From Blasia pusilla (lineage: Eukaryota): 64,000 nucleotides of DNA. Below the pieces are notes generated by a model. It ran no database searches. It worked only from the letters and a program-made list of their open reading frames with translations, and was not told the origin of the DNA. Made by a program: the position numbers and the translations under genes. Below are positions 3,040-31,419 of the stretch, piece by piece. The DNA is taken from positions 25,110,001 to 25,174,000 of the forward strand of contig CM114271.1 of the NCBI GenBank assembly GCA_050084515.1, written 5' to 3'. Position 1 is the stretch's first letter, and every line of letters starts with the position of its first letter.

Positions 3040-3269
3040 TCATTTAAACATATGAGTCGTTCTTTATGACTCATCTTTACTAGGCGAGTGAAACAAGTCT
3101 GACTCGTAGTGACTAGTGGGTATTGAAAACTTCTTTAGTCATAAGGAGATGACTCAATGAGTTGTACGACCCTAAATTTTATGACTAAACCATTTAAGTA
3201 CTAATTTGAGTCATTCTTTTGGTGAGTCATTTAAAGTCTAGTCATAAAAACCACCCATTTCTTCTAGTG
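3040..3269 (+). mobile_element. Right terminus of a CACTA (En/Spm) transposon
   Basis: Ends TTTCTTCTAGTG (reverse complement CACTAGAAGAAA) after clustered GACTCA/TGAGTC subterminal motifs. The same terminus occurs at 41019. It truncates the repeat that continues further left at 8368. Confidence 0.7.
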
Positions 3270-4490
3270 TATACTGCCGAGGAAGGTGGTGGGACTCGAG
3301 ATAGGTTACATGGGACCGTTATGGTGTACCTAGGGGGGGGCCAAGGCTCTCGAATTCGCCCAACATTTTCGATCCCTGTCTACAATCGGCCAGAGGAGCC
3401 ACTTGAATCCCAAGACATTCCTTTGGTACTGTCACCGAGGAGAGTTAGGAGTAAATTTGTAGATAACGAGGCTGAAGAAATCATAGACTAGGTGAAATGT
3501 ATATTTCCGAGGTTCCTTCGGAGGTAATAAAAATGAGATTTTTTCAACCCATAATGGTTTGTAAAAGTTTGCTGGAATATGTTTTTGGACTTGTGGATTG
3601 TGTTCTTTTAGCTACTCAGAATTACAATTCTGCAACCCGTATGATTCCGACGGGTTGCAACTTTTGCTTTATTCGCAACTTTTTAACATTTCAGGCAACC
3701 TGTCGGATTCGGCAGTTGATCGCTTGAGTGATCGGACTCTATCCTGTGAGACCAACCGACGCATTGTGGCGGGCTTCTTGACTTTTGCCGTTCCCTTCAT
3801 TCGTCCAACCAGTTCTAGGCTTGTTTTCTTGTCTAAGATGTGCAGGATTCCTACTACCTGTCGGATTGCCATTTCGGATTCCCAACCCGTTAGATCGTCG
3901 TGGGTTCAGGGTGGAAGAAAATCACTTCTAAAAATCTTTTCCTTTCTTATGGTGAGCTTTCTTACTGGTTGGGAGGGGTGCAGCTTCTCAGTTTCTCAGC
4001 CTTAGGATCTGATTTGTTCACATTTCAGAAAGTTGGTCTTGAGCAGACACCATTCATAACCGACAGAAAGTTGGTTATGGGGCAATTTAGGGGAGGCCAT
4101 GATGCAAGCAACAATCCTTGCAAAAAGAGAGGTTCCCATCCGGGTGGTCCTCCAACAAAAATACCAAGGGCACTGCTTTTTGTTGACAGAGACAGGGAAT
4201 GTTAAGAAACTTAGGCTCACATGGAGAGTGATGGAAAAATGTTTAGGGTGGTCTTATGATAACTCATTTTTTCTCGCCCCCAGGAAAGAGGAGGTTTTTT
4301 TAGGGCCAAATGTGGACCACTAAATACTCTCTTCTAAAGATTTCCTGAATTTTAAAGCAAAAAAAATTTTCAAATATGTCAAAAAGTTTTGAAGAGAGGA
4401 GGCGGATTTGGCCTTTTTTTTTAAGAGAGACTCTCCTCTCTTCCTCTCTTCCTCTCCTCTCTTACTCTCTCTTGTCAGAATACCAGCCCC
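3270..4490 (+). mobile_element. Terminal segment of the Mutator-like element: last codons of the ParB-MTase gene, 3' region and putative TIR
   Basis: Direct repeat of 8368-9597. Encodes PTFSIPVYNRPEEPL...EAEEIID*, the C-terminus of the minus-strand gene at ~10468-10600. Ends CTCTCTTCCTCTCTTCCTCTCCTCT...GAATACCAGCCCC. Confidence 0.6.
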
Positions 4491-4774
4491 CCACGGGTTG
4501 CTTTGGGGAAAAAACCTTCTAAACCTGCAGTCACTCGAGCAACTCGTCGGAGTCCGACGGGTTGCATTCTTAAAAGAACACCCTCACAAGGCGGCCTATC
4601 GAGCAACCCGTCGGACTCCGACAGTTTGCTTACCAGGCATTAGCAAATCTGAATGCAATCCGTCGGACTCCGACGGGTTGCATCATTAAGCTCGTTGCTA
4701 GAATCCGACCTTGAGCTGTGACGACCCGTCAGAGTCCGACGGGTTGCAAAAACCCATGTAATTTCCTGACGAGT

Positions 4775-7700
4775 TGAGTTTGGATGTGCAAGATTGTATC
4801 CGAGGGGAATGTCGCCCACCACTGGATCCAGGACTGCGATCGGGTGAGAAAGGTGCTTACGACGCACCCGGGAGAGTACAGGGGGTTCTTGGGCGATGCC
4901 CTCGTCAATCAGATGCTTGCAAAGGATGCTCAGATTAAGAAGAAAACTTGGGCAAACAAGTTTATTTCTCAAGATGCAGCCGTAACCATCCTTTGCTGGT
5001 CAAAGATTTAGGCCCAAGAAAAGCGCCGCACTAGAGCCGAGCGGAGGGAGAAGGTATCTGCGCCTCGAGCGCAAAATTCATCAAGCCGCAGATTCGCTGC
5101 AACGAAATACACGGCGAGCAAGATGCAGCGATACATCAACATTCTCAACCCGAACTTCGTCCGGAGTTCTACAAGGAGTCAAGGCTATTATCAAGCACCA
5201 AATGAAGAGGGATGAAGATCCGCATGGTCGGATTGGGAGAAAGTGTCGCGATCGCGTGCACGGGTTTGCGTTGTCCGGGATAAGCGAAGTTCAGGAGGAT
5301 ACGATCGATGAAAATCAGTCTCGAGGGCTCGAGGAGGCCAGAAGAGGGCGCACACCATCCTCCGGTGTGTCCGATCCGGTGATCTTGCATTGGCTACGCG
5401 AATGGTCATTCTGGGACGCGTTGCTGGTAATCGGGAAGTCCGTGCTGGACGGTCTGCAAGCGGAGCTCAGAAGATTGGAGCCCATTCCGCCGGAAGCAAA
5501 CCTTGAAAGTTCTGGAGATTATGAGGTTTGGCTGGACGACATCCGGGACAAGCCAACAAAAAACCCAGGATTCAAGACCATGTTCAAGGTTTGCGTCCTC
5601 CCTCAGACAGAGCTTGACAAAGAAGTAGAGGGGAACAAACGGGATCAAGCGAAGAAGAAGCGAGATCTACAAGAGCAGACGGCCGATAATGTTCGATTAA
5701 AAGCTGACCAACGGATGGTCTTCACGTACCTCGTCCAGTGTAAGAACGCAGGTATGTGGGGAAAATTACCGGTAGCCTTGAAGTTGTGGGCTTCGCCGCC
5801 GGATGCAGAGACATTCTCCATGTACGACGTGGAGATGGGGCAGCACATGTCCGATTGGGAGGTGGAGAATTGCCCCATTTGGCTCGACTTCAACGACCCT
5901 GAAGACATCACGGATAAGGACTTACGAGTGCTTCATGATGCAGTGGCCTCAGGACAAGACGACATCCCCAATTTCGTCCAGCCTGAAGACTTCTTCGGAG
6001 GAGATGTAGAAGAGCAAGCCCACGAGACAGCTGAGTTGGGTTCCAAGGTCTGGACAGCCAAAGACAAATCCATAGCGGGTCTCAAAGGCACGGCGAGGGG
6101 AGGGAAAAATTCAGAGGCCGAGTCTTCCCAAAGAGAGGCTGAAGATTCAAAGCCAGAGGCAGAATCGTCCAGACGAGCGGGGAGAGAGGGTCGGACCAGG
6201 TCCTCGGCGAAAAAAACGCCACTAGAATCTGAGGTCATAGAAACCCCGACAAGCCATCCCCAGACTAGGGAGAAGCGGAAGCGAGAGGTGCCCGAGTTGT
6301 CCCAAGGAGAATACAACCCATCGTCCTTGGGAAGACACAGACAAAAAATGACCCGGACAAGCGTCCTCTTTCAGTTCACTCCTTTACTGGATGAGCTGAA
6401 GAGCTTCAGTTCTTAAGCGTCGACACCAGCCATCGAAAAATTGACAACGCTGGGACGGAAGCTCCAACGAAACGAGCATGCTGCCTGGACGGTGAATGGA
6501 GTGGTGGAAGAGGTTGCGGTGGATCTCTTGATCGCCAATCTGCCCTCGGGGTTGCGACTTTGGGGCGAGAATCCGTCGGACGAGGTACTTGAGTGGAATG
6601 TGCCGCTCACTTATGACCAGATTGCACTTTTGTTCTCCTTTGCAGACGACTATCTGAGTGACTGGGGCTGCTTCTTGGTGTTGACTGGAGGGAGCGAGAA
6701 CGAGCTCTTCAACCTCTAGTGCGTCAAGAGGTCGCTAAAGTGGAGGACGTCACAATCGTGGATCATCAAAATCGAGTACCCACTCCGATCCGCGACGAGT
6801 TAGATTCGGGTAAGGCTCAATTCCTTTACAATAATTTCAATTATCTTATAATGATGTGTAGAATGAGAGTCAATCTGGGCTTTTTTTGTCGGTGAGCAAT
6901 CCGTTGGAAGGCGACGGGTTGCTGGCTTAGAGCGGGTTGCTGGCTTAGAGCAGCCCATGCTTGGCTGAGAGCAACCCATCGGTTTCCGACGGGTTGCATC
7001 TTTCCCACATACACCCGGAAAACCGCGGTGTTCCTGCAACCCGACGGGTTGCAGGAGGCGACGGGTTGCTCTCAGGCGAGCATGGGCTGCTCTAGGCCAA
7101 CAACCCGTCGCCTTATGAAGGGTTGCATCCAAAAACCAAAATCAACTGGGAAAACCCAAAAGCAACTGCAACCCGTCGGGTTCCGACGGGTTGGTCCGGG
7201 ACAAAACAACCCGTCGGACTCCGATAGGTTGATCCAAAGTCAGTTATTGAAAATCTTCTCAAGGCGACTTCTTTAGTTTTCGACATTGTTTCCAACGTCT
7301 TTGATTCTGAGATGGACCACTCCTACGCTCTCGCTTTGTTCGCCCGAGCACAATTTCAGGTGTTCAAGATCCAGGATCCTGTGGATCCATGCTCGATGGG
7401 TACTGACTTAGATAGTTTGTACAATTCCCCGGAATTTACATGCAAGACAAGACCCCACTACGGGAGGAAGGAAAAGTCGCCACCGATGCAACGCTCATCG
7501 AGCTCTGCTCAAGGCCGGGTGACTTGGTGTTCGACTTAGTGGGACTTTCAAAGGGGCAAGTATCAAAGGCGCTGGCAGAGTGGCAGGAACATTCTCGCCT
7601 CGAGGGAAGGCAGAATCGCTTTGACCTTTGCAAGGAGGCAAAGGCGAATACGAAAGGCTCGTTGGGGCATACAACTCTCCACGGCCGAGAGCTCCGGTTC

Positions 7701-7889
7701 CGAGCCACCCTTGGTAGTGACTCCATGGTCACTTCCAACGATTCCCAAAATCGGGAGGGCAAGGCCGAAAGTGATTTTGCAAGAGCTCTTGACGATGATG
7801 AGTGAGTTCAAAGAACTCAACGACCAGCTTGACTGCAGCGTTTGGAGTAGGGAGTTTTTGATAATGAGGCAAAAGATTTCATAGAATAG
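4775..7889 (+). pseudogene. 5'-truncated copy of the ParB-like/beta-class amino-DNA-methyltransferase gene
   Basis: ORFs 4784-5011, 5202-6416 and 6441-6719, then intron 6810-7311 (GTAAG...AG), then exon to TAG at 7887-7889. Motif IV VDLLIANLPSG (6519-6551), LSDWGCFLV, HSYALALFAR, and motif X-I KEKSP..LIELCSRPGDLVFD (7468-7535) followed by ASIK..SGRNILA.E across frameshifts. Confidence 0.7.
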
Positions 7890-8299
7890 ATCAAATGTAC
7901 AGATTCCGAGCTTTTTCGGATGATATAAAGCGTAAGATTTTTTCGATCGATGGTGCTTGTAAATGTTTGCTGATCATTTTTCTTTTCGAATGTTCGAATG
8001 TGACTTCTACTTTGCAATCGGATTTCTCCACGGACTTGCAACTTTCACTTTATGACCATTGCAACCCGTCGGATTTCTCCTCCTTGCAACTTTTCGCTTT
8101 TTGACCATCGCACCCTTTTACCACCTCCGGCAACCTGTCTGATTCCGACAGTTGCCCGATCGGACCCTTTCCTGTTGGTCCAACTTAAGAGGTCGTCTGG
8201 CGGGCTTCTTCCTTGGCACCTTCCCCTCAACTCGTAAAGGCGGCGAGGCTTTTTCTTCTCTCAGACGTGTTGGATTCCTTCTACCCAGGCGGTTGCCAT

Positions 8300-9597
8300 A
8301 ATGGTATTACCAGGGGACGGAGCAGATATTGATCTTTGGATGGGTGTCACATTGAGAGCGTACAAGGTATACTGCCGAGGAAGGCGGTGGGACTCGAGAC
8401 AGGTTACATGGGACCGTTATGGTGTACCTAGGGGGGGCCAAGGCTCTCAAATTCGCCCAACATTTTCGATCCCCGTCTACAATCGGCCAGAGGAGCCACT
8501 TGAATCCCATGACATTCCTTTGGTACTATCACCGAGGAGAGTTAGGAGTAAATTTGTAGATGACGAGGCTGAAGAAATCATAGACTAGGTGAAATGTACA
8601 TTTCCGAGGTTCCTTTGGAGGTAATAAAGGACGATATTTTTTCAACCCATAATGGTGTTTGTAAAGTCTTGCTGGAATATGTTTTTGGACTTGTGGATTG
8701 TGTTCTTTTAGCTACTCAGAATTACAATTCTGCAACCCGTAGATTCCGACTTTTTACTTTTTGCCCAGTGCAACTTTTTAACCATTTCCAGGCAACCTGT
8801 CGGATTCCGACAGGTTGAGTGCTTGAGTGATCCAACTCTATCCCGGTGAGACCAACTTCTGACGCATTGTGGCGGGCTTCTTGACTTTTGGCTCGTTCCC
8901 CTTCATTCGTCCAACCAGTTGTAGGCTTCTTTTCTTGTCTAAGATGTGCAGGATTCCTACTACCTGTCGGATTGCCATTTCGGATTCCCAACCCTTTAGA
9001 TCGTCGTGGGTGCAGGGTGGAAGAAAATCACTTCTGAAAATATTTCCTTTCTTATGGTGAGCTTTCTTACGGGTTGGGAGGGGTGCAGCTTCTCGGTTTC
9101 TCAGCATAAGGATCTGATTTGTTCATATTTCAGAAAGTTGGTCTTGAGCAGACACCATTCTTAACCGACATAAAGTTGGTTATGGGGCAATTCAGGGGAG
9201 GCCATGATGCAGGCAACAATCCCTGCAAAAAGAGAGGTACCCATCCGGGTGGTCCTCCAACAAAAATACCAAGGGCACTGCTTTTTGTTGACTGAGACAC
9301 GCAATGTGAAGAAACTTAGGCTCACATGGATAGTGATGGAAAAATGTTTGTAGTGGTCTTATGATGTCTACTTGTTTTTCGCCCCCTGGAAAAAGGAGGT
9401 GTCTTTAGGCCCGAATGTGGACCACTACCTACTCTCTTCTAAAGATTTCATGAATTTGAAAGTAAACAAAAATTTCAAATATGTCAAAAAGTTTTGAAGA
9501 GAGGAGGCGGATTTGGCCCTTTTTTTTGAAGAGAGACTCTCCTCTCTTCCTCTCTTCCTCTCCTCTCTTACTCTCTCCTGCCAGAATACCAGCGCCC
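8300..9597 (+). mobile_element. Second terminal segment of the Mutator-like element
   Basis: 8368-9597 repeats 3270-4490. Ends with the same CT-rich block and GAATACCAGCGCCC. Confidence 0.6.
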
Positions 9598-10467
9598 GAA
9601 TGGGTGCATTAAGTATACCATGGACTGTTGTGCGTTTGATAACTTGGTTTCATCATTCTCTCACCCATTGAGAAATGTATGCATCAAGAAGAAAATGTGA
9701 TCAGACTGAAATGACAATTGAACCAAAAGGTTGATAGTTGTGAGGAGTAAAGAGGAACTAATGCACCCATGTCCCTTCATTCAGACCCTAAATGTCGGAA
9801 ACCCATAGGTTGCACCCCTTGCAAGCAAGCACACCACAACAAAAGAATGATCTTGACAAGTGATTCTATTGCGCCCTGCACCCCATGAGAATCCAACATG
9901 AGAATCTGACAAGTAGTAGGAATCCAACACATCTCTCAAATACCGTGTTAGAGAATAACGGTGTGAAGATAATGGGGGAACAAGGAAAAAGTGAAGAAGC
10001 CTGCCATAATGCCTAAAAAGTTGGACTAACAAGAAAAGAGTGGGATCACTCAAGCAGCCAACCTGTCGGAATCCGACGGGTTGCCTGAAAGGAGTTAAAA
10101 AATATTGTGACAAGTTGCAACCCGTCGGAATCCGACGGATTGCAAAATAAATAGCCTCGAGTAGATAGACCAACACAATCGACGAGAACGAAAAAAAATT
10201 CAGCAAAATTTTACAAAAAGAGTGGGATCACTCAAGCAGCCAACCTGTTGAAATCTGACAGGTTGCGTGGAAAAAGTTTAAAATATTGTGACAAGTTGCA
10301 AGCCGTCGGAATCCAACTAGTTGCAAAATAAAAAACCTCGAGTAGATAGACCAACACAATCGACAAGAACGAAAAACAATTCAGCAAATGTTTAGAAAAA
10401 CCATCATGGTTCAAAAACTTTTTGTCCTTTATTACATCCGAGGGAAGCTCGGAAATGTACATTTGAT

Positions 10468-13400
10468 CTAGACAATGATTTCTTCAGCCTCGTCATCTAC
10501 AAATTTACTCCTAACTCTCCTAGGTTCCTGTACAAAAGAAATGTCTTGGGATACAAGTGGCTCGTCTGGCCGATTGTAGATGGGGATCGTAAATGTTGGG
10601 GAATCAAGGAAGGTGACTTCTCCCTTCCTCCAATTAAGGGGAGAATTTTAGAGACTATCTAAGCTGTACCCATCGGAGCATGGATCCACTGGATCTGGGA
10701 TCTTGAACACCTGGAAGTTGTGCTCGGGCCTTACAAAGCAATAGACAAATGAGTGGTCCATCTGTAAACAAGAAGGTGGAAAATAATGTCAGCAAAAAGA
10801 AAAAGCTAGTAGACGTCGGGATCCGACGGGTTGCTCATTTGGCTAGGCACAGGAGCAAATGCAACATATCTGAGTCTGACAGGTTGCTTTTCAACCTGTC
10901 ATACTAGTCCATAGTGATAACCAACCTGTCCGAACTTGGCCTATAGGCCTGACAAAACAGCAACCTGTCAAAATTCGACGGGTTGGCCATGAGCAACCCG
11001 TCGGAAGCCGACAGGTTGCTCATCTTGTTGGATAGAACCTCCACCTGTTGGAGTCCGATGGTTGGCTTTCAAATTGAATACAATTGTTTAGAGTTGAGAA
11101 CTTCCGAATATGAGAGCCACCCATCGCTTTCAGACGGGTTGCATCACTCTAGAAGCATATGGAAAAGCAGTGCTACTTGCAACCCGATGGGTTCCGACGA
11201 GTTGCAGTCAATTGAGACTTGTTGGTGAATTTGCAACCCGTCGCTTTTAGATGGATTGCAACATCGCAGACACAAGCTGTTGGGATCCAACTGGTTGCAT
11301 GCAGAGATGTAACCCGTCGGAGTCCAACGGGTTGAATTTCTATTCAAACTCAATTCGTTGAAAAAGAGGACTTACCCGGACTTGAGTCGTCGCCGATTTG
11401 AGTGGATACTCATTTTTAATGACCCATGATTGCGTCGTCCTCCACTTCAGCAACCTCTTCACGCACTGAAGGTTGAAGAGCTCGTCTTTGCTCCCCTCCA
11501 GTCAGGACCAAGAAACAACCCTTGTCACTCATATACGCGTCGGCAAAAGAAAACAACAACGCGATTTGGTCGTACGAAAGCGGAACATTCCACTCTGGGA
11601 CAGTGTCAGATGGATTGTTATCCCACAAGCAAAACCCAAAAGGCAAATCCGCAATGAGGAGGTCCACTGCCACCTCCTCAACAACCCCATGCACCATCCA
11701 GGGGGCCTGCCCGTTTTGTAGGAGTTTTCGTCCCAACACGGTCAATTTGTCGATGGCAGTTGTCGACTCTTGAGAATTGAAACTCTATAGCTCATCGACA
11801 AGATGAGTCAAGTGAATAAGGACATTTGTTCTGGTGGCTCTATCCCTACGCGAGCCCAAGGAAGATTGAGTGTATTCCACATCCTTATCTCCTCCCTTGG
11901 ACGAACCAAACGCCTCCCGCTTTCGCTTCTCCCGAGTCTGCTGTCGGCTTGTGGGAGTCTCTATTACCTCAGACTCACAAGAGTTTTCTTGCATGAGGAC
12001 CTGGTCCGGCCCTCTCGCCCCGCTCGCCTGGACGATTCCGCCTCTCGCCTTGAGGACTCAGCCTCTTTTTTGGAAGACTCCGCCTCGGAATTCCTCAATC
12101 CCCTCGCCTTGGCTTTCAAACCCGTTATGGATTTTTCTTTAGCGGTGACGACCTTTGCCACCAACTCCACTGTCTTGAGGGCTTGCTCCTCTGCATCTCC
12201 TCCGAAAACATCGTCAGGCTTCACGAAGTTTGGAATGTTGTCCCTACCTGCAGCCATTGCATCATACACCACGCGTAGATTTTGTAATGTCCTCAGGGTC
12301 GTTGAAGTCCAACCAGATTGGACAATTGATAGCCTCCCAGTCGAACATGCCCTGTCCCATCTCCATGTCGTACATGGAGAATCCCTCTCCATCAGGCGGA
12401 GAAGCCCACAATTTGCAAGCTGCCGGTAATTTTTGCCAAGTACCTGCATTCATACAATTGATGAGGTACCTGTAAACCATCCGCTGGGCAGATCTTTATC
12501 AAGATGACTCGGCCGTCTCGTCTTGAAGATCTCGCTTCTTCTTTGCAAAATCCCATTTTTTGGCGTCTATTTCCTCATCCATATCTGCTTGAGGGAGAAT
12601 GTGATTCTTGAACATCATCTTGAATCCTGGGTTTTTCGTGGCTTTATATCTGATGCCATCAAGCCATAGTTCAAAATCTTCTATAGCCTCTAGGTTTGCT
12701 TTCTTTGGAACTGGCTCAATCTTCTTCAGCTCCGCTTGTAGATCCACGATCATGGACTTCCCGAGAAGGCGCAACGAATCCCAGAATGACCATTCCCCTA
12801 GCGAATGGGAGATCATTGGATCTGAAACTCCCGGAGGATGGTGTGCCGCCCGCTTTTGGGCCCGAGTGCCCTGAGACTGATTTTCATCAGTTGAATTTGC
12901 CTAAACTCGGATATCCCAGACAACGCAAACCGGTGGATGCCGTCTTGAGACAGCTTCTATCCGATCCGACCCTGTGGATCTTCGTCTCTCTTCCGCTCCC
13001 GCTTGATTATCGCCTTGAGCTCCTTGTAAAACTCCGGGCCAAGTTCAAGGTTGAGAATCGTAATGTAACGCTGCATCTTGCTTGCAATGTACTTTGTAGC
13101 TGCACATACGGCAGCCTGAATAAACTTTGCACGTTCCGACGTTGACACGTTCTCCCTTCACTCCAGTTCCAACGAAGCACTCTTCTTGGCGGCTTGGATC
13201 TTGGACCAACATAGGATTGTGACGGCTGCATCTTTTGGGAAATAAAGGTATTTGCCCGGGTCTTCTTTTTTATTTGAGCTCCCTTTGCCAGCATCTCATT
13301 TATCAGATTGTCGCCCAGGAATCCCTTGTACTCTTCCGGGTGCGTCGTAAGCACCTTCTTCACCCTGTCGCAATCTTGGATCCAGTGGTGGGTGATGTTC

Positions 13401-15484
13401 CCCTCGGATACAATCTTACACATCCAAACACAAGGTAAAAATACTGCAAGCTATCGGGTTCCTGCAACCCGTCGGACTCTGACGGATGGCAATTTTGTCA
13501 ACCCATAGGGGTCTAAATCGTAACACACAGATAAGTGTTGCAACCCGTCGGACTCCGACCGGTCGTAATTCTGTAAATCCATCGGAGTCCAAATCGTAAC
13601 ACAGAGATAAATGTTGCAACCCGACGGAGTCCTGACGGGTTGCAACACTTATCTTTGTGTTACACTTATTGCAACACTCTTGAGAGAATTGCAACCCATC
13701 GGAGTCTAACAGGTTGCACTCTCTTTTCATGACTCTTTGGTCCAACCGATCGGTTCCTCTTGATCCTTGGTTTCCAGGTTAAAAACTGCACATATCAACC
13801 CATCGAAGCCCGAAAGGTTGCGTAATGGCCTTGTTAAGCTGGAATTGGACGCCTAAAAGCAAGCTCTCAGACTCCGACCACATGCCATTGGGGCCAAATG
13901 CAACCCATCGGAGTCCGACAAGTTGCTTGCGGCCAAAAGTATCCAAAAATAAGCAGACAGTCCAACAACTCGTCAGACTCCGACGAGTTTCTTTTAGGCG
14001 TCCGATGATTTGTTACCTCTCATTGTGCAACTCGTCGGAGTCCGACGGATTGAAGAAAAAATAAATCATGCAGTCATTTTTCCACCCATCGATGTTCGAC
14101 TTGGTTCAATATCCCGTATTAATGTGGTGTGCTTGGCCAGCAGGCAACGGGTCGGACTCCGACGGTTTGCTTGACTATGACATTGACCACAAACAGGATG
14201 GTGGCAAGAGACTCAAATCATTCTTGCCCATCTTTAAGCTTTCCAATTATGCAACCCGTTGGACACCGACGAGTTGAAGCAATCAAACTTAAGGAAGAGG
14301 AAACTTACGTATTCATCGCATGCATTGCCATTTCCACCATTGCCATGTGATGAGGAAATGGATGGAGCACAACTGCCTTCACAAAAAAATGCGCCTCCAA
14401 TGAATTTGGACGCTCCTCTACAAACAGTGTCCACGCCATGTACTTGTGGTTTCCATCCCAGATGAAGAAGTAAAGGTTCCGCATCCAGCTAAATTGGGTT
14501 CCTTCAATCGCTCATCCTCCAGAAAGTATCCAACGCCTCCAAGTCCTCTTCCGTCACCAGAGCTTGGGTTCCATGTTCATTGTAAGGCTAAACATAGAAC
14601 GGAGGGAAGCTGTCAACGTAGGATGCAGTCGTTGTCGACTGTTTGAGCTTTGCAATGTCCTCCGACTGAATTTCGCGAACATACTCCATTGTCCATAATC
14701 AACAAAGTGGAATTCTTGGGCCTTCTAGCCCTCCATCAATGCCATCTGCTTAACAACCTGCCACAATGGGGACCAAGTCAATATAATACAGTGTTTTGCC
14801 AATGAATTGCAAAATGAGCCTTCACATAACCCGAATTTTTCTTACCCGCTCAAAGATTGGGTCGGCGTCCAGGCCCGCCAGCTACTCTAGGACAACAACT
14901 GGCAAGTCCACGGGAAACTCATTGATCCGATAATGGTTGATTTCTTCCACTGGGCTCAAAGACGACGAAGACTCTTCTCCTGCTTCTTCAGAGATGTCCA
15001 CCATCTCCACACTTGCTGTCCTCATGACCTCATCGTCTGTCACTTGAACTTCCGCCGTTTCCTCAGCCGATTTTAGATTCATGGTGTCCCCTGACCTCAT
15101 CGGAGACATTTCCTGCATCTCAACACTCTCTCTTGGACGGGCAGGGCTTTCTTCAATGGCGATTGCTTTTTCCCTTTGAGCTTTCACCAATTCTGCTCTC
15201 CTGATGGAGGCCTCAAGACGCTTCTTCTCGCATTTCTCGTCCACGACTCTTTTCTTCAAGGCCTTTGATGCCTCAGCCTCGGCGTTTTTCTTAGCGAGCT
15301 CCTCTAGAACACGTTTTGCTAGAACCTCCTGCCTCTGCATATCTGCTTCCCTTTCCCGCTCCTCTATTTCTTGTTGCCTTATCTCATTCGCTGAACGAGG
15401 ACCTGGAGATGGTGACGCAGGAGTCCTAATGGACTTGGGAGTGATGCTCCCTACCTTGGTTTCTTGTGTTTTCTTTCTCGTCAT
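10468..15484 (-). pseudogene. Four-exon gene: charged N-terminus + ParB/Srx-like domain + beta-class N6A/N4C DNA methyltransferase (disrupted, motif I deleted)
   Basis: Inferred exons 15484-14846, 14757-14309, 13443-11376 and 10761-10468, all with GTAAG donors and CAG acceptors. Exon 2 encodes VREIQSEDIAKLKQS...PFYV...YFFIWDGNHKYMAW (14431-14472), a ParB DGNH(R/K) motif. Exon 3 encodes VDLLIADLPFG (DLPF at 11638-11649) and YMSDKGCFLV. Confidence 0.72.
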
Positions 15485-15894
15485 GGTGCACGTTGGGTCA
15501 GTTCTTCCTCCTCGACAGTCTAATCTGCTCATGTGCAGGATATATCCCTCAAAGCATTTCGTGATGAAGCGCCGTGATCCTAAACCCAACTCTGTTAGCG
15601 TTTCGTGATGAAGCGCCGTGACCCTCCAGCCGATGGGCTTGCCGAAATCAAACCCTAGAAGCCTCGGGTGCTGGATCGTCTGTAACCTTCCAACGAAGGG
15701 ATGAATGTAACCAAGTTTGGCAGCGGAAAGGTAACGTTAACAGCTGCGAGGAAGAGCACATGAAATCGTGAAATGAAAAACAGAAATGAGCAAAATCTTA
15801 GCCTTTTATACTTTTTGAGCCATTGAGCTGACCATTGGGTCGTTGGGTTGTACCGACGGTGATGTGTCGGCCGTTATGGAACTTTGCACGTGGG

Positions 15895-16162
15895 AACCCA
15901 AGCAACCCGTCGGTCTCCAACGGGTGACATGCTTCCCTCATCTTGGGGATGCAAGGCGAGGTACCCAGGCAACATGTCGGAGACCGACGGATTGCACTCT
16001 TCCCTTGTCGTTGGGGTAACAAAGCGAGGTACCCAGGAAACCCGTCGGAGACCGACGGGTTGCACGCTTCCCTCATCTTGGGGTAACAAGGTGAGGTACC
16101 CGGGCAACCCCTCGGAGACCGACGGGTTGCACACTTCCCTCGTCCTCGGGTAACAAGGCGAC
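15895..16162. repeat. ~68-bp tandem repeat x4, each unit holding one palindrome, in the divergent intergenic region
   Basis: Units start ACCCA/GG at ~15895, 15963, 16031 and 16098, each with CAACCCGTCGGAGACCGACGGGTTGCA-like cores and GGGGTAACAAGG.GAGGT tails. Confidence 0.85.
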
Positions 16163-16835
16163 AAAGCATAGTCCTGAGGAAACCAATGGATTACAAGGTC
16201 TACCCTCGGTTGGACACTTCCCACCATACAGGAAAAATTGCACTCACGATTTGCACAGTTCATTGGACAAGAGAAATCGACGCGAGATTCCCCTTGCAAC
16301 CCGGTTACCTCCAAAAGGGAGAGCGAGGTTAGGTGCCTTTCCAACCCGTCGCAGTCCCCAAAGGGTTGCCGTAGCAAATCCATGCAAGGTCTTGTGGATC
16401 TCGACTCCAATCAGACAGGTCAAACATGCAAAGGGTACTAATCCAACAGACTCCGACGGGTTGCAAGTTGGACTCTGACTCTAATAGAAGATGGTAGTCC
16501 GTGGCTTTGCAACCAACGTGTCTGAGTTCCAAAATTTGCAACCTATTGGACTCCAACAAGTTGCAACAGGATTGAATCCATTGCATCAAAAAATCTCACC
16601 TACCAAACAGCATCTTGTCAGTCAAATTCTATAAGGAGAATAAGGGTCAAAATTCACTATAAATTAAACATTCTCATTCTCATTCCCATTCTTATTCTTA
16701 TTCCTATTCTCATTCTCCATCCAGTGGAATAATCTGGGAATGGATAATTATGTGAAACTCACTTGTGGCAATCATCTAGCGGCCCTTCCTCAATAAGAAA
16801 TAATTCAACTACAAGCTCGTGAGTCTTACATACCA

Positions 16836-19800
16836 ATGGATGAAAATTTCCTCTCTGTCGGATTTCTTCTCCAAATTGGAACAATCTTTGTTTCCAAGGA
16901 TGTTAGGGTGGACAGTACGGAGGATGTTGTAGGTGAGATAGTCCAGCCAGTGATAGCAGATTGTAAAGTATGGAATCTCCTACCTCTAAAAAATGGTCAA
17001 TACAGAGTTTATGGCTTGCCTTTGAATTCCTCTGTTTCCCAAGTAGACGGTCCGGAATTTCCTAGTGCATCGAGCTCTACGTTTGCCACTCCCAACTTAA
17101 TAGATCCGGCATCGACTCTAGCTTCACATGTTCGTAACAATGTTGTACTTCCTGAAGATATTCCGGACGTCGTCAACCTCAGTGGATCTGTCAGACACCA
17201 ACAGGGCCCTCTGTCTGCCTACTCATTCCTCTTGCGAGTATCAGGCAATAGTTTGCTGTCGTCTTTGCCCTTTAAAATGTTCAAGCACATTCTTGTCGAC
17301 GAGCTGCCGCCCACATATGATAGTAATTGCATTTTTTAGGAACCTCCACTTGCTGGTCCTGCTCCAAAGAAAGATGGAGGATGCTTGAAGGGTATGGACA
17401 GAAAGTCTGATTGTCATCAATGGCGCAGGCTTCAACGGACTAGTGCTTCAATTCCAGATGGTCCTTAGATTGTTTCTCTCCGCCAATGCGTTGGAGCCCT
17501 GGAGTGTAGAAGTCCAGCTAGCCCGTATCTAGAGCACAATGGGCGAGTCAATACGTTGCAATTCTCCCCAAAGAATGCAGAAACTCCATATGAGGTCGGT
17601 GCGACCATATCGCAGGAGGCCATCAATGTCCTCATTGTCAAGCATCCCCTTTCTGCGTTGGAGTGTGTCGTGCATACATATTTTTCATTGTGCACGACTT
17701 CAATTCTACGACCGAGTACACTTGGCTGGCAGTTCATGTTGGCTCCCACATTCATCCTGTTACTGGTGCAATTCAGAGACACATCAAGGAGGATGTGGCA
17801 AAGAAATTGTCCGAGGTATATAGAAACTCTCCGGGATCAAAGCCCAGAGTGATCAAGTTAACAACAACATCACAAATTTGTGAACAATTGCTTGAAATCC
17901 TTGGATAGAGCGAGATCACGACTGTTGAGGAGAAACAACAATGGGAAAATCTCGCATTTCTCGCTGATCCTGAATGCTTCCGAAGTTTGATCCATCAAAT
18001 ACGGGTACTGGATGGAAAGATGGCCGAAATGGATGCCATTTCCAAAATCAAGGCCAATTCCAGATTTCCATTTATTCAGACATGGCAGTTCATGGGCCAG
18101 GGAGGTGAAGGATCCAGAGCTTATGTCTTCAAAATGTCAACGACAGGGCTGTCGAGTGGCCTCGATCTTATAGATCGAATGAGGGAAGGGGGAGATCTTT
18201 ACGGTAGTTGGGTAAGCTTTGATATTTGCTACAGAGTGTTGAATGGATGGTTGACCATGGGTGCTCACGTTTATGACCATGTGGAGAAGGGACTCAAAAC
18301 TATATTTTTCTGTGAGGTAAAAGCCGAAGATGTTGGCAGTTTGAAGATGGGTTCGTTACTCTTATTGGAGGTGGTGAAGGAAAACAAAAGGCTTCCTCCG
18401 GAAATTTATGGATTCATGGCGGACAATGCACAACCAGGGTGGATTGCTATCAAGGAAGTGTTCTGGGGTGAAGAGGTTCAACCAGAGAGGGAAAGGTCGG
18501 ATGCTTTCCATTGGCAACAATCTGTGACCCCGTACACCAAATCTTGCATCAAGGAGAATAAGAGGACAAAGCATGTCACTCTACTCCAACGCTGCAAGGA
18601 CAACAAAACCTTGAAACAAGCCATGGAGTGCCAAGAAGAACTTTATGGGTGGTGGAGGAAGCATGCGATTGAGGGGAAGTACAAAGAGTTGTGCTCTTGG
18701 ATGAGTTGGTGGACTGTACAAATGAGACAATGGGGAAACTTCATGCGACAGGTGAGTTCAGTATCTCGTCCTGTCGAGCTCATGCTGAGAATTGTTTGAA
18801 AAGTTGCAACTCAAGTTGAGAAGCGTGGGCACTATAGGGATTTCAAACCGAAGAAACCAAGCAGCCCGTCGGATGCGACAGGTTGCCTGAGTGTGCAACC
18901 AGTCGGAAACCGATGGGTTGCATCAAGAATGTTTGTGTTCCTTGTCGGAGCGTGACATCATGCACGAGGAATGTTTCTGCAACCCGTAGGAATCCGACTG
19001 GTTGCATGAGTGTGCAACGTGTCGAATCCCTACGGGTTGTAAGTTGCATGCATACAAGGCCAGCAAATAGTTCGACCCGGATGGGTTGCAAGCCGCAAGG
19101 CTGCGAGTTAACTCGGTCTACGACTTGTCAAATTCCGACAAGTTGCATCTATCTGCAACCTGTGGGATTCCGACTAGTTGCATCTATATGCGACTCTTGG
19201 CATTCATACAGGTTGCGGCTCTCTCCAAGTCGCATCTAGACACGTTGAATCAGCTCAAGTAAATTGGAACCCGTTAAATTCCAATACTTGCAAAGCTTTG
19301 TGTGTGGATACTTCTTGCAAGCCAACGGAATTTGACAGGTTACACAAGGATTTTCGAGACCGAACCGGCCTGCTTCTCACAACCCGTCCGATTCCGACGG
19401 GTTGCAGTAGCAGGTTCGTGGGAACTAGGTTGAAGTAAAAGGTTACTGGGACATTCGAGGGAAGTCTCTGACTTGCAACCCATTTAAATTGGAGGTTGGA
19501 AAATCCATGTGCGATTCGTCGGATTCCCATGACTTGCACTTGGATCTTCCAGCCCAGAGTTACTTGCAACCCGTCTGAATCCGACGGGTTGCAGTAGATG
19601 GTTCTTGGGTGTTGCAATACATCGTAAACCAACGAATCGCAGAATCATTCATGGGATGCCTCCGACTTGCAACCCGTCTGGTTCTGACATGTAGCTTTTT
19701 TCTTTGCTCATAGAGCTATTTTCGTTCCCTTCTCACATTGCCATCATTGCAGGGATTGAACATTCATGAAAATATCCTCTGCCCCAACACAAGTGGAGGA

Positions 19801-21280
19801 GAAAGTGTTCATTCCTCCTGGAGGTCATCATAAGCATGCCAAAGAATTTCACTTGTGGAGGCATGCCAACAGACCAGGCAAGAGCAATGCTACAATTTGC
19901 AGTATCCCATATCTTCCTCACAAAAGGCATAACAAAAGTAAGGGGGCCTTCGATTTACGAGCTCTATGTCAAGGCGGTTGTGAGATATATTGATGAGGAA
20001 CTCTATGTGGAAGCCTTCAATCGGTGCGTAGTAAGAACTCCCCTCGAGCAAGATGTACACATTGGTGGGGATATTCGTGGGCGTGTTTCAAGACGTCCCA
20101 CACAAATGGTGGTAGAGCAGTCCGAGCGAGACTCGTGGAGACCATATAAGTATCTTGACTTCAGGCAAGTGAAGAGGCACCATCGAGGAACAAACCCGGT
20201 GATTGATTTGGATGAAGAAATTACGCCGCCTAGGTAGTCGGAGACCTAGATTGATCCCAAATCCATGATGCAGTAACTTTTCCAAAATCAGTGAATGTTT
20301 TATTTCAAAAGCCCTCCATTGCTGGAAGTTTGCAACATCCGGTCGTTGAAAGTTTGCAACATCTGGTCGCTAGGGTGGTTCAGCAGTATGGGATTCGGTC
20401 ATTGAGGTGGATTGCAACCTCAAAAGATGGCATATATCTTGGAGCAACCCTGGACGTGGACCCACTTGCAGGGCAGGATTAGATGGCATTAGGAGAGCAT
20501 GCGGCACATTCCTAAATAAGAATTGTACAAGGACTAGACAACCACTGCCTAGATTCTGGGGACTCAAAACCTTTGATCGTTTCACAAGGACCAGGGATCA
20601 ATTGAAGTACTTCTTCTGCCCAAATGAATCCTACGCTTTCCGAAAGTCTTATCCGACTACCATTTGAGCTCCTAGGAATACCCCCATGATTTGGCCCATT
20701 GCCGCAGGTACGAATTGCACTTAGGACGAAGTGGACAATCTTACAAGTGTTGGTTTCAGAGTCGTAGACGAAGGAATTTTGGAGCATGTTCGCATTACAG
20801 AGACCTTCGCATTTCGTATTCAACCCAAGATTGATGTCAACATGTATTCGGAGAAGGTGGATGATCTCAATCCACTATTTTTGTTTGAGTTTAGAAATGG
20901 GGTGAAGAGAAATAGAATGTGTAGGCCAACGGTGGAGAGAGCAAAGCGAATCGCATCAGCTTGGGAGGCAAACATAGAAATCATCGCCACAAAAGATGTC
21001 CAGAGTGGCAATGGAATAGGAAGGATGCATTGGGTCAGGAACAACACTGTAAATTCAACTCTCACAGGGGTGTATGTGGTGCACATCTGTTGCTTTCCCA
21101 CATATTCCTGTGATAACTTTGTCCAAAGAGAGACAAGTGGAAAATGTATTTCCCTTGTAAGCACATGTACTATGAGTTGCTTGTAGTTTTAAGAGAGTCG
21201 GAGATAGGAGTAGGAATCCACCAACCAAATCTATCCCTTAAAGAAGTGTGAAGTATTTTAAACAAACCACTTTGAGGATG
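16836..21280 (+). pseudogene. Mutator-like DDE transposase with N-terminal GCM/WRKY-like Zn domain and C-terminal SWIM finger (stops and frameshifts)
   Basis: DCHQW...RQCVGALEC...N..QF...HVGSHIH at ~17410-17760. D at 18221 (WVSFD), D at 18422 (FMADNA), (C/D)xxH motif DAFH at 18500. Phase-0 intron 18752-19752, then E at 19801 (PNTSGGESVHSSW). SWIM-like YVVHI...SCDNF...CKHMY at ~21070-21170. Confidence 0.8.
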
Positions 21281-24200
21281 TAAAATGAGGTCTTAGATTG
21301 TACTTTCATTTGCCAGAACCTTCACTTTGAGCTTGAACTCTATGCAGCCCAAGGCAAATGACAAATTTTTTCCAGACCTTGGTTGGAAAAAGTGATTTGT
21401 TCCACATTTATGATTCCACTGATTTTTCAATTTTTAAAATTTTGTGCAAATTGCAACCCGTCGGATTTAGATGGGTTGCCAAAATGTGGAAGATGAAAAA
21501 AAAATCTGTCGGAGTGCCTAAGCACTGAGAACAACAGTGCAAAAAAATTCACAAAAAAGTTTTGAGTACTCTCTTAAAAAAAAGTATCTCTTTGGGTTAA
21601 AGGTAGTTTCCTCTCTCCTCTCTCCTCTCTTCTCTCTTCCTCTCTTCCTCTCCTCTAAGCGCTCCTTCGGCGCGACGTAGCAGGAAGCGCGGTGCGAAAG
21701 AGGACGACGTGAGGCTAGACCAGACGGAAGCGACTCTGAGGGCCCAACCCGCCGGATGCAGCGTCTCAGCAATGGCGGCAGGGTTGGCGGCATCCTGGGG
21801 ACCAGTGTGGCAAGGGTTCAGGCTAGTGCGGCAGCAACGTAGACGCGGCATTCAAGCAGCGTAAGTTCGGCGGTAGTCGCGGTCGGCGGAGGCTCGGCGG
21901 CTGTGTAGAGGCGGCTCGTCCACGGGCCCCCCTTTCCCCCAAATTTGTTTTTTCCACTAAAATGACCCCTTGAAAACCCGGATTTCTCTATTTTTTCCTC
22001 TTACTTGATTGCCCCCCTCTTTACAGATTACAAATAGCATGCTTTACCACAAATCCCTCCTAAGATTGAGGGTCAACACCCCCCAAAGATAACTTTTCAC
22101 TCAACTTCTTCCTCAAAGGACATGTGCCCTTGTTCTATTCACTAAGTTAACAATGATTTTTATTTTTCTACCTATCAACAAGGATTTTTACCCAAGGATT
22201 TTGGAAAGTTCACTCACACCTTAGAACGGTGGCTATGGCAGCCCAATAAAACTTGTCCTAACTTGGCGCTCACCTACTCAAATTGTGCATTGGTTCTTCC
22301 ACAACGTGCACAACTTCCCGATCTACGACGGTGTTAAATCAATTTCTTCATTTGATCTCCCAACAAAAATTGGCAGGGACTGTCGTGCAGCCCATCGTCT
22401 CTTTCTCCTACGCAAAATTTGGCAGTGCTTCTTTGGTGATTTCTTCCAACACCAACTTCAACCTGTAAAATACAGAAGCCATAAAGCTACACACTGCTCC
22501 CAAGAGCACCGGCATGGGTAATTTTCCCCCACACTCAAATTCTACCAAAATTTGGGCAGCACTTCCATGCGTCCCTCTCTCGTACGAAAAAAGTCAAAGG
22601 AAAATATCAAACTGACTGACTCTTGCTCCCAAGAGCACTCCCATGAGTCATGAAGCAAGGAACACGGTCCCTAACCTGCAAACACAACAAAAATGTAGCA
22701 AGTTCCCGCATTGTAGCTCTCATTCTCTCTTGTAAAGTACGCTCGGATCTCTCTCAACACCATCTCACACCATAGCTCTCAAAGGTGTGCACTCTCTCTC
22801 ATGTCAAACCAAACCCACTCTCCTTATAAGAGCCTTGGATTACACTCACAAGGCAAGGGACCATAGCTCCGCCGTCTCATGCCATGAGGTTCAACAAAGA
22901 GAGAATGAGCTCTGTCATGACCATACGGATTATGTCGTAGAGTATAGTGTGCTAGTAGAGGCCATACCTTATGTAGAGCCGTAGTGTCTAGATAGAGATG
23001 CAGTTTCATACATAGGGTTTGGGGTGACTAAGTTGAGGGTGACTTTTCCAGTAGAGCCCGCTCTTAGGTTGGAGGATATAGTGTGGAGTGCACTCAAAGA
23101 ATATTTAGTTCTTTGAGTTGAGCCTGTTGCGTTGGGAGTTAGCCTTGGTAGTGAGTAGAGCTCTTGGCTATGGTGGTTCTCGCAAGCTTCGACTTGGATT
23201 ATCCCATCGTGGAGTGGGTTTGGCTCGATTGTATGTGATTCTATACGTGTTTTATGACAGTAGAAATTTCACGGATTTCACTCAAAGAACTAGAGTAGAT
23301 CGATGGTAACTTCGATTGTGGATCAGTAGGATCTGGTTAGGGCTTATTGTGTACTCAACCGTGGATTTTCATGGCTTGTGGCCTATTTTGGAGGTAGGAA
23401 TCTGATGCATGGTTGGTTGGGAAAGAAGTGCCTTGTTGAGAGCTTTCCAACGTGCTTTAGATGCCAGATTCCGTCAAGGGAGTTGGAAGTTATCAAGGAT
23501 TGAAGATTATGGTTCGTGTTTGACGGTTTTCTGATGTGGAGAGCTTGGAGTGCGGAAGCTCTGTTGAAGTTCATCAAGATCGGGTGAGACGTTCCTATTG
23601 CTACTTATATTGTGATCTCATGTGAAGCTATCTGCTTGAGTGTGTGGAGCATTGCGGATTTCTGCGTGTATGAATCTGGGCGGAAGCACTGTCGGATTTG
23701 TGATTCTGGAGGTGTATGGACATTAAGTTTGCCTGATTTTTAGCTCAGAGTACAGAGCTTGATTGTAGCTTTTTTTTTGTGGAGAGATAGCTATGGTGAT
23801 ATATTGAATTCTGGTTTAAATAGATTCAATTTTGGTTGGGGATTTGTGGAGTAATTGCTGATCGAAATTTTGAAGAGTAGCTCAAGGACTAGCTATGGTG
23901 GACAGCAGATCGGAGGGGCTGGTTGGTTGGTGATTCGTCCGTTGTTGGAGAGGCCTATCCCATTGGGGGCGCCCTGGTTGGGCCTCTCTCCATAGCAAAG
24001 CATGGCAAAGCGTGGCAAATGGGGCATGTCTCGAGCATTTCTCGGCGTTCCGAGGCTTCGAGGCAACTCGTGGTAGCTCGGGGCGAGTGGGCGTGAGAGG
24101 CGGAGTAAGGAGCAAGGAGCAAGCAAGCAAGCTTGCTTGCTTGGTTGGGCGTGAGGCAGTTTTTGCAGGATTTGTGATTTTAGTGTTGCATAACTGGTCA

Positions 24201-24916
24201 TCCATCTTTGGGCTATTCTGCCTGGAAGACATTTAACTGCTGAGTTCTTAACTATGCCAGTGTACATATTGGTGTAGCTCATTTGGTGTTGTTCGGAGAG
24301 GTGTTAGGCGGTTTATGCATCTCAATTTTTTGGTTGATGGACCTCTAGCACATAGTATGGTGTAGCCTCTCCATGCAGGTGATATTTTCAAGTGCTGCGA
24401 GTCCGACTAGCACGTCATCGACCCGCGGCGGAGTAGCTATTGCGTTAGAATTGTGTGGTGGAATCTGTGGATTCAGGGGGCGCCATGTTTGGTGGATTAT
24501 GTTACCTTGATTTCCATTTGTGATTGGAGGGTTGTCGTTGGACTTTCTGTGTTTGGATCCCCTCCATCGTTGCTTCTTGCTTGCGCGCCCATTGTTAGGG
24601 TTGACGCTGATTTCGAGTAGTGTTATACGTGTGCTGCTCTTTTGGTAGTGAGGCTGGAGTGATGACTAGTAGACCGTGGGAGGCTTCTTGTGGTGATGAC
24701 AGGTTAGGTTGCCTACACCCATAGCTAGTAGAGCTAGAATAGTACAACGACATCGACGTCACTTGGTTACTTAGTGGTGGTAATTTGGTGGTGGTGCGGC
24801 ATCGGCGTTGGTCATCACGGAACTGTCTCGTGGTCTGGTTGGGGATCGTGGTGCGGATAATGGTGGTTTTACATGGAGTGGATTGAGGTATCGGCTACCT
24901 CTTCCACTTCCGACAG

Positions 24917-26568: not shown

Positions 26569-26739
26569 CTTAGGTCCTGTATTTCAGCTAGCAGCCACAT
26601 TGTGTGAACGTGGGGGTGTTACTGCTACACATTCTGAGGTGGATGAGGTGTTGCGGTGGAGCGACCCTCTATGTCAGGTGTAGCATTGAGTACCAGTGCT
26701 ACTTGGTCAGGCAACAGCGGCAAAGATGGATGCATTACC

Positions 26740-27200
26740 AACCCGGCCAGCCATTGATCGTGAGAGGCTTACACCTGGTGTATGTATGTTGGACAACCGG
26801 AGTGGGATATTTTGATTGGTGAGTCCTACATGACAGGTGTATAGACGAGATATAGTCTTGTTAGACTCTGGTGCCCAACCTTTGATGTTGGGAAAGGCGA
26901 CATGTATTGGTTTGGGTATTCGGAGGTCAGAGCTTGAGCCTTGCCCATTCTAGATTCAAACATCACTTGGAGGAGCCAATGATAGGTCTCAATTCATGAC
27001 ATGGGAGAAGTTGTCTATACATTTTAGACCAAATCATGCGACTGATAGCTCCCGATTGGGAGTACCTGCAGTGGTCACATCAGTCGAGTCATATGATGTA
27101 CTAGTTGGAGGAGCAGTATTGTACTCGATGGGTTTTCAGATGGACTATTGGACTAAGACAGCATCTTATAGACTTGGTTGGCAGTCCGAGGGATGGACGT
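26740..27200 (+). pseudogene. Retroviral-type aspartic protease domain
   Basis: VLLDSGAQPLMLG at ~26855-26895 and downstream YDVLVGG. Confidence 0.85.
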
Positions 27201-31200: not shown

Positions 31201-31419
31201 CCATATACTAACCAAGAGGATGCAACTGGGGCTAGATGGCATGGCGAGGTTGATGAGGAGATGGTCCCACGTTGGCATGCATCAATGCATCCTTTTTATG
31301 CTGGTTAGGGGTGGATTCTAGTATAGAGGACCACATGACATCTTACTCTAGTCAGAGGGTAGATGGCCAGCCTTTAGATCCTAAGGTTGGAGATGGTGGT
31401 ACGCATCAGCGTGATATTC

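Follow-up and report, generated by a model that had tools for sequence, protein, structure and literature searches.

Layout of the accessory gene at the locus

The window analyzed here is a 64,000-nucleotide (nt) stretch of the Blasia pusilla genome (contig CM114271.1, positions 25,110,001 to 25,174,000 of the forward strand), and all coordinates given below are window positions. Two genes are arranged head to head in it, about 1.3-2 kb apart. One, on the minus strand (approximately 15484-10468), is an accessory gene that joins a ParB-like and a methyltransferase-like part and is termed copy B; the other, on the plus strand, is transposase-like. A second copy of the accessory gene, termed copy A, is located at lower coordinates on the plus strand. 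Both accessory copies are decayed and belong to a protein family represented in the liverwort genus Riccia.

An earlier note on this DNA, based on its letters and open reading frames (ORFs), had reported a ParB-type DGNH motif and a methyltransferase-type DLPF motif. Both motifs were confirmed: WDGNHK is encoded in the minus-strand ORF 14511-14305 and VDLLIADLPFG in the minus-strand ORF 11784-11416, and the two ORFs are homologous to one protein family. Riccia proteins were aligned to copy B by tblastn in a colinear series of blocks (14734-14513, 14478-14311, 13414-13229, 13229-12843, 12801-12283 and 11757-11473), with E-values down to 1e-15. Furthermore, a ParB-block hidden Markov model (HMM) built from 51 of the 71 family members matched the copy B ORFs 14511-14308 (E 3e-9), 14587-14507 (E 8e-4) and 14698-14591 (E 0.13), and a methyltransferase-block HMM matched ORF 11784-11419 (E 6e-7). 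Since the ParB-like and the methyltransferase-like piece match one colinear protein family, they are regarded as parts of one gene. Pfam searches with every single ORF and with read-throughs of both copies yielded no relevant match (single ORFs none at E<=1), and a PDB sequence search (phmmer) with the two motif-bearing ORFs of 122 and 68 amino acids (aa) found nothing; profiles applied to the window ORFs alone would therefore have failed the ParB-methyltransferase reading. Protein-language-model leads for the 68-aa ORF were DUF6551 (0.92) and a cluster carrying ParB_N on 11% of its members (0.91).

Further pieces of copy B were assigned with less certainty. The end of the putative N-terminal part, 'EEINHYRINEF', resembles by eye the family sequence 'IIxKYTMxF' that precedes PRIPLCRL, with no significant alignment. 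The long central exon contains a QYDWIQDAER-like block, a helical middle and motifs IV (DLPF) to V-VI at 11784-11419. It is followed by a short piece (DPVDPCSDG) that by eye resembles the family block 'F.IPKLD.PPFD.ENSGRD..NYN' (HMM E 13-36, not significant); within the family, the PFDxxNSGRD block is situated between motif VIII and motif X. Sequence of the probable last exon occurs in three window copies, at 3360-3491, 8457-8590 and 10599-10468. Judging from the sequence, the three spacers 14304-13430, 11375-10791 and 10639-10605 are plausible introns.

A Riccia protein family with the same architecture

The 476-aa ORF of copy A gave no match in a word-indexed search of proteins. A HMMER scan with the copy A read-through (P0001) detected four relatives (best E 2e-17), and a profile derived from these four retrieved 68 proteins. 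In total, the family comprises 71 Riccia proteins, all from R. sorocarpa apart from one of R. fluitans, and is thus a large family whose annotated members are hypothetical proteins, none with a functional name. Judged by these relatives alone, the host of the window would probably be a liverwort or close to the liverworts. The UniRef label 'Trimethylguanosine synthase' of the R. sorocarpa protein P0009 looks like an automatic mis-annotation, since Pfam shows only a sub-threshold N6_N4_Mtase match for it.

The fuller members (873-1244 aa) align in one common colinear architecture. From the N-terminus, a low-complexity part is followed by PRIPLCRL ... WDGNHR, by QYDWIQDAER and by a long helical and disordered middle; then come ADCLxLD-[LM]-P-[ST]-G, DDRGCLIILH, PFDxxNSGRD..NYN, FVQTLLENFT.QGDIVIDFAGGWGAT, ..AE.. 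and acidic tails. The ParB-type and the methyltransferase motif occur within one protein in at least 5 of the 71 members. At the family level, the results thus support one multi-copy protein in which a ParB-like domain of prokaryotic type is fused to an amino-methyltransferase of the beta class.

Predicted folds of the two domains

Structure prediction, which had been proposed as a check, pointed to a ParB/sulfiredoxin (Srx) fold for family member P0033 (Z 8.6) and to a beta-class methyltransferase fold for P0025 (Z 18.4). For the P0033 model, the top 17 VIA-align rows were all ParB, Noc, KorB, PadC or sulfiredoxin structures (Z 8.6-4.0), and the first unrelated row followed at Z 3.7. Model residues 146-307 were superimposed on Caulobacter ParB with Z 8.4 and a root-mean-square deviation (rmsd) of 2.4 over 100 residues. 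Foldseek returned no row at E<=1e-3 for this model, its weak rows being rich in ParB and sulfiredoxin. Of the 71 members, 34 contain the motif [DE]GNH (DGNHR 31 times, DGNHQ 3, EGNHR 1), copy B of the window having DGNHK; we take DGNHR to be the ParB GxxR box, a motif of the G-x-x-R type. With moderate confidence, the N-terminal part of the family is predicted to adopt the ParB/Srx fold.

The P0025 AlphaFold model, derived from a 75-row alignment, had a mean predicted local distance difference test (pLDDT) value of 67, with domain blocks at 70-91. Foldseek matched it to M1.HpyAVI (E 1.9e-8) and CcrM (E 2.2e-8) among 62 matches at E<=1e-3. VIA-align placed residues 603-873 on CcrM with Z 18.4 (227 aligned residues, rmsd 4.0), followed by M1.HpyAVI (Z 17.5, 196 of 201 residues, rmsd 3.0), the N4-cytosine (N4C) enzyme M.PvuII (Z 16.7) and rotifer N4CMT (Z 16.1). 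At the sequence level, Pfam N6_N4_Mtase (PF01555) matched 7 of 8 members at the X-I end only (E 1e-5 to 0.29), and in a comparison of the family profile with the PDB, M1.HpyAVI occupied the top two of six rows (E 0.038 and 0.058) and unrelated proteins occupied three. The C-terminal part of the family is accordingly modeled as a beta-class N6-adenine (N6A)/N4C methyltransferase fold with the motif order IV ... X-I. This order, read for copy B in the earlier note, holds for the family by alignment and by the P0025 fold; in copy B itself, the family HMM matched no X-I half, the S-adenosylmethionine (SAM)-binding one. Because both enzyme types score alike, N6A and N4C specificity are indistinguishable here.

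Family and solved enzymes (CcrM, M1.HpyAVI, M.BceJIV, M.MboIIA, M.RsrI, M.PvuII and rotifer N4CMT) share the fold and the order IV ... X-I at Z 15-18, and motif I of the family (DFAGGWGAT) and of M1.HpyAVI (DPFMGSGTT) are alike in the alignment. In contrast, identity to the solved beta-class enzymes is only 11-16%, the family has a large N-terminal extension, and D-[LMI]-P-[ST]-G replaces (D/S)PP(Y/F).

Decay of both window copies

Copy A (4726-6814, plus strand) and copy B (13485-11371) are 74.5% identical over 2128 nt. Copy A is open in a single frame over 4986-6808 except for TAA, TAG and TAG. Relative to it, copy B shows indels of 5, 1 and 1 bases, and its frame is also broken by stops near 12499 and at 11785 (TAG). 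Whole-genome reads of the same species label, aligned at a read likeness of at least 88%, deviate from copy B at three positions: two bases are missing at 13233 in 47 of 129 reads, an extra C is present at 12872 in 70 of 113 reads, and one base is missing at 11493 in 82 of 350 reads. Because copy A is in frame and the reads differ from copy B, most of the 'exons' within 13429-11376 are interpreted as frameshifted pieces of one long exon. Copy B is a pseudogene and not an intact spliced gene. The four-exon spliced gene proposed earlier was therefore not upheld, its frame changes within 13429-11376 being mutations, and no RNA splice joint was among the 15 read joints listed (of 396). A candidate GT-AG intron at 11984-11785 was also rejected, since this segment is in one frame interrupted by a TAG and is read through in copy A.

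The 3' parts are likewise degraded. The motif IV-V piece of copy A (6417-6716) matched the family HMM with E 3e-9, and its ORF 7416-7805 (HMM 7416-7802) contains a weak X-I-like stretch at E 1.4 only. After the piece at 10790-10640, copy B meets a 1.25-kb repeat, termed repeat R, within 36 bases, and copy A has about 400 more bases at this place.

Only one part of the accessory unit, 10142-11025, showed appreciable RNA (depth 6.5-13, first mate on the plus strand in all three RNA runs). These reads carry fixed differences from the window and hence come from other copies.

Stretches matching animal legumains near their catalytic Cys were observed in both copies (12262-12495 on the minus strand, 5690-5960 on the plus strand). 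The match of copy A has E 6e-4, and copy B matched 12 legumain sequences with E 0.0075-0.69. A functional legumain-like domain was rejected, the Cys not being kept in Riccia relatives (W, D and W there). The likeness is probably due to chance; a very remote similarity is possible.

Transposase-like gene, palindrome arrays and copy number

The region 17211-18766 is homologous to two unnamed proteins of 660-678 aa (38-43% identity, tblastn). Its frameshift near 17610 corresponds to insertions at 17612 and 17614 that are supported by reads. Searches against Pfam transposase families gave no match for window ORFs (for 17909-18799 the best row was HEPN, E 0.08) or for the homologues P0003 and P0004. 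The residues SFD ... MADN ... SDAFH are invariant by eye in the three aligned sequences, the third acidic residue not being located. Patterns of this type are common to several superfamilies and do not single out Mutator. A metagenome scan with the transposase alignment produced 144 pattern matches, 0 of which were confirmed. Two ORFs further downstream on the plus strand possibly represent the C-terminal half of the transposase-like gene; an extra A at 19870 was found in 1076 of 1290 whole-genome reads. The accessory gene had been described as divergent from the transposase of a Mutator-like element (MULE): a divergent transposase-like plus-strand gene was indeed found, but the Mutator identity received no Pfam match. 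A preprint on the red alga Bostrychia reports that, owing to accessory genes of just this sort, Plavaka elements had been wrongly classified as MULEs (10.1101/2025.02.11.637652).

A 27-bp palindrome of the form 13-1-13, TGCAACCCGTCGGA-n-TCCGACGGGTTGCA with the half-site GCAACCCGTCGGA, recurs throughout the region. In the 64-kb window, 80 half-sites were counted at two or fewer mismatches versus 0.94 expected, all of them within 3632-21756. The palindromes occur inside the two genes and on either side of each, forming arrays in the presumed introns, between the two genes, past the transposase ORF and in repeat R, which itself begins with the apparent last exon of the accessory gene. The units of copies A and B are placed tail to tail with a shared R, forming a large imperfect palindrome (about 4726-8990 versus 13485-9886), with an extra R upstream of A. 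Such a structure could have arisen when palindrome arrays recombined with each other.

Read depth, summed over both directions, amounted to 115-280 over the accessory gene (115-173 over 11026-13235), 466-1329 over 16772-18981 and 560-1120 over 19424-21191, as compared to 6.5 in the flank. At the right side it dropped from 471 (bin 21192-21633) to 6.5 (21634-22075), placing the border near 21.63 kb. These values show a high copy number, probably in the tens to hundreds. The borders named earlier, 10468 and 21280, were not recovered: 10468 is simply where the last ORF stops, homology to the other copy continues to about 9800, depth falls only after about 21630, and no terminal inverted repeats were found at either position. 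The features of the region are compiled in Table 1.

Table 1. Coordinates and supporting observations of features in the accessory gene copies, the transposase-like gene and associated repeats
Feature	Position	Strand	Observation
Repeat R, first copy	3269..4504	+	91.4% identity over 1251 nt to second copy, 8367-9610
Copy A of accessory gene	4778..7805	+	5'-truncated, without ParB part; one frame with three stops; motif IV NLPS
Truncated inverted copy of 1.25-kb repeat R	9798..10604	-	3' and terminal region of unit; 452 whole-genome reads diverge at 10604
Probable last exon of copy B ('...PRRVRSKFVDDEAEEIIV', then stop)	10468..10604	-	Predicted; by-eye likeness to family tail '...KRRNPFVDDQAKED'
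Short conserved piece of copy B	10640..10790	-	80% identity to copy A 7282-7430
Spacer with palindrome array	10791..11375	-	After conserved GGTAAG
Long central exon of copy B, decayed	11376..13429	-	74.5% identity to copy A over 2128 nt; indels; family HMM E 6e-7
Spacer, probable intron, full of 13-1-13 palindrome array	13430..14304	-	Predicted; GTAAGT after 14305; half-sites 13464-14263
ParB/sulfiredoxin-like domain with WDGNHK	14305..14734	-	Broken: 2 in-frame stops and 1 frameshift; tblastn E 1e-15
Putative N-terminal low-complexity, acidic, coiled part	14885..15484	-	Predicted; ATG at 15484, inside ORF 15736-14882
Palindrome array between divergent genes	15902..16464	.	Half-site count
Transposase-like gene, decayed	16797..18799	+	Homology 17211-18766; three in-frame stops; frameshift near 17610
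Palindrome array with copy-specific insertion 19088-19528	18861..19681	.	Joint 19087->19529 in 90 whole-genome reads
Two ORFs	19770..21186	+	No Pfam match; depth 560-1120, as high as transposase part
Right border region, high-copy repeat	21550..21665	+	Weak likeness to end of R, same orientation

Interpretation of the region as a probable composite transposon

We consider it probable that the region represents a decayed copy of one large composite DNA transposon carrying both divergent genes. Such an element would extend from about 9.8 kb to about 21.65 kb with a truncated left end and would encode the transposase-like gene on the plus strand and the accessory gene on the minus strand, both presumably moving as one unit. 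The ancestral accessory product, of about 900-1250 aa in Riccia, would have consisted of a ParB/sulfiredoxin DGNHR domain at the N-terminus and a beta-class N6A/N4C-type DNA methyltransferase domain at the C-terminus, joined by a long helical and disordered stretch. The ParB-like part of an intact copy, perhaps together with the neighboring helices, may recognize the 13-1-13 palindromes of the element. Binding would recruit the domain with the methyltransferase fold to the DNA of the element itself, where this domain could modify DNA or, given that its motif IV is devoid of an aromatic residue, only bind DNA or SAM. Silencing or transposition might be tuned as an outcome. The earlier proposal of a prokaryote-type writer carried as transposon cargo is in line with the fusion seen in the family, its head-to-head position with a transposase-like gene and the shared palindromes, whereas an intact gene and the Mutator class were not substantiated.

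Several observations weigh against this interpretation. Regarding the ParB-like domain, Pfam ParBc and ParB_N gave no match at E<=1 for the window ORFs or for eight family members, and the structural Z-scores fall into the range that the tool terms 'middling'. Concerning the methyltransferase domain, none of the eight members reached the curated N6_N4_Mtase cut-off of 26.7 bits (matches 11.5-25.9 bits). Moreover, motif I (DFAGGWGAT and variants) is kept in only 7 of the 71 annotated members. Motif IV, located by alignment and model after strand 665-671 of P0025, reads D-[LMI]-P-x-[GH] in 21 members, with x being T in 13, S in 6, K in 1 and I in 1, and an aromatic residue in none of them. The catalytic motif IV of these enzymes is (D/N/S)PP(Y/F/W), the aromatic residue of which stacks on the base. 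From the loss of this base-stacking residue it is argued that the family represents an inactive or unusual enzyme; judging from the motif, its catalytic competence is doubtful, and the non-canonical motif IV predicts either a pseudo-enzyme or unusual chemistry. DLPF, previously taken for a motif variant of such enzymes, turned out to be peculiar to copy B. Copy A has NLPS, and neither form is typical of the family, which has D-[LMI]-P-[ST]-G.

At the RNA level, depth over the copy B gene body (11026-13235) was 0-2 in three raw RNA runs, by which expression of intact copies is neither shown nor excluded. Terminal inverted repeats were searched for between 8.9-11.4 or 13.4-16.9 kb and 20.9-22.95 kb, and nothing was recovered apart from the palindrome and a CT-rich 30-mer. 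No target-site duplication was found. Furthermore, the depth of the accessory part is 3-5 times below that of the transposase part at a likeness of at least 88%, and the second accessory copy (A) lies between two direct R copies with no transposase beside it.

The last two points also agree with an arrangement of two adjacent or nested elements, in which the ParB-methyltransferase gene and R would constitute a family of their own, possibly non-autonomous, that has its palindrome in common with a transposase element of higher copy number at about 16.7-21.65 kb and is mobilized by it in trans. At about 16772 the depth increases abruptly, with 113 before and 466 after this position, and it remains 3-5 times higher through 21633. 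In addition, the right end (21550-21665) is weakly similar to the end of R, with both in the same orientation. However, depth at this likeness also reflects the conservation of each part, the same palindrome arrays occur in both parts, and the head-to-head layout is as in a published Ectocarpus element described below. Two separate elements are consequently rated as a rather unlikely explanation, albeit one to be taken seriously.

A more far-reaching form of the composite-transposon interpretation would regard intact members as active self-marking systems, in which ParB sits on the palindrome arrays and the D-x-P-[ST]-G domain writes N6-methyladenine (6mA) or N4-methylcytosine (4mC) on its own element, host 4mC writers of the MpDN4MT1 type possibly being domesticated relatives. 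We regard this form as improbable.

It is even less probable that the family is an expanded host gene family merely residing near transposons rather than being cargo. The annotation of all 71 relatives, as ordinary hypothetical proteins encoded on chromosomes of Riccia, is what would be expected for host genes, but the depth suggests a copy number in the tens to hundreds, copies A and B are both pseudogenes placed within inverted and tandem repeats, many Riccia members are truncated (DGNH in 34 of 71, motif I in 7 of 71), and palindrome arrays are situated inside presumed introns. A Pack-type chimera of captured host fragments (e.g., of legumain together with a methyltransferase acting on RNA or protein), or a coincidental set of motifs, would account for the legumain matches in both copies (A, E 6e-4; B, E 0.0075-0.69) and for the missing Pfam matches of window ORFs, but is hardly credible given that the Cys at the legumain nucleophile column is missing in the Riccia relatives shown, the entire architecture is colinear across 71 proteins, and the folds are those of ParB and a beta-class DNA methyltransferase.

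Relation to known accessory proteins of transposons

The composite-transposon interpretation has close counterparts in algae. The 21.5-kb Ectocarpus transposon Sola1-1_Ec32 is described as encoding a 1104-aa accessory protein with ParB-like and methyltransferase domains on the strand opposite to the transposase, and the hypothesis that such a protein binds and modifies its own transposon has already been proposed for this element (PMC12477816). As far as the published description goes, the fused protein of about 1100 aa (873-1244 aa in fuller Riccia members), the opposite-strand gene and the large DNA transposon are features in common. The Ectocarpus element differs, by description only, in its brown-algal host and its Sola1 transposase, the window transposase belonging to a family with no Pfam match. 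A further point of difference is motif IV of the liverwort family, which has no aromatic residue.

In the red alga Bostrychia, giant Plavaka elements are reported to encode PAG2 (PF01555 plus SET) and PAG3 (ParB-like plus 2-oxoglutarate (2OG) oxygenase), and the carriers of such genes include EnSpm/Plavaka, Mutator, Zisupton and Fanzor-encoding elements (10.1101/2025.02.11.637652). According to that description, these genes resemble the liverwort case in that both domains are found on giant DNA transposons, tandem inverted-repeat arrays lie beside PAG3, and copies are mostly degenerate and weakly transcribed. By the same description, the red-algal domains reside on two proteins, whereas the liverwort family is fused and has no SET or oxygenase domain detected by Pfam. 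Related ParB/methyltransferase genes have been published for red and green algal transposons (PMC12477816; 10.1101/2025.02.11.637652). Moreover, ParB-linked beta-class or Dam-like methyltransferases of phages and prophages are described as having been transferred repeatedly to eukaryotes (Iyer, Zhang and Aravind, BioEssays 2016, PMC4738411); the eukaryotic cases in the accessible parts of that article are haptophytes, chlorophytes and chytrids, and no land-plant or transposon-borne case of this architecture is named in these parts.

By analogy, the layout, with both domains, a transposon-borne gene opposite to the transposase and inverted-repeat arrays nearby, appears to be of the algal accessory-protein kind. 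The concept and the self-marking hypothesis are not new and are already in print for algae. A literature search, from which supplements (possibly listing further taxa) were left out, found no paper placing such an accessory gene in liverworts. With the present results, the class of ParB-like plus N4C/N6A accessory proteins, recently recognized in brown, red and green algae, gains a representative in a liverwort-like genome, and its range thus probably includes land plants. The results also provide testable material, namely the fuller Riccia members, the conserved non-canonical motif IV and, as a candidate binding site, the 27-bp palindrome.

The Marchantia 4mC writers MpDN4MT1a/b carry TSPPY as far as described, unlike the family analyzed here. 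Since liverworts are, to our knowledge, the only plant group with proven 4mC, it would be worthwhile to examine by phylogeny whether the amino-methyltransferases of transposons and those of the host are linked.

Other features of the window

Outside the element, 226-990 and 1326-2916 contain long (GA)n-type microsatellites with poly-RE/poly-LS ORFs, as well as tandem repeats of about 350 bp. Copies of long terminal repeat (LTR) retrotransposons at 22910-34203, with related ones at 42-50 kb and 50.7-60.4 kb, include an internal piece of a C5 cytosine DNA methyltransferase (DNMT). Its ORF 27823-28434 matched Pfam DNA_methylase above the cut-off (E 3.6e-7), and the same elements carry reverse transcriptase, RNase H and a PHD finger. 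Retrotransposon-borne DNMTs are known from dinoflagellates and charophytes, as described in PMC5890265.

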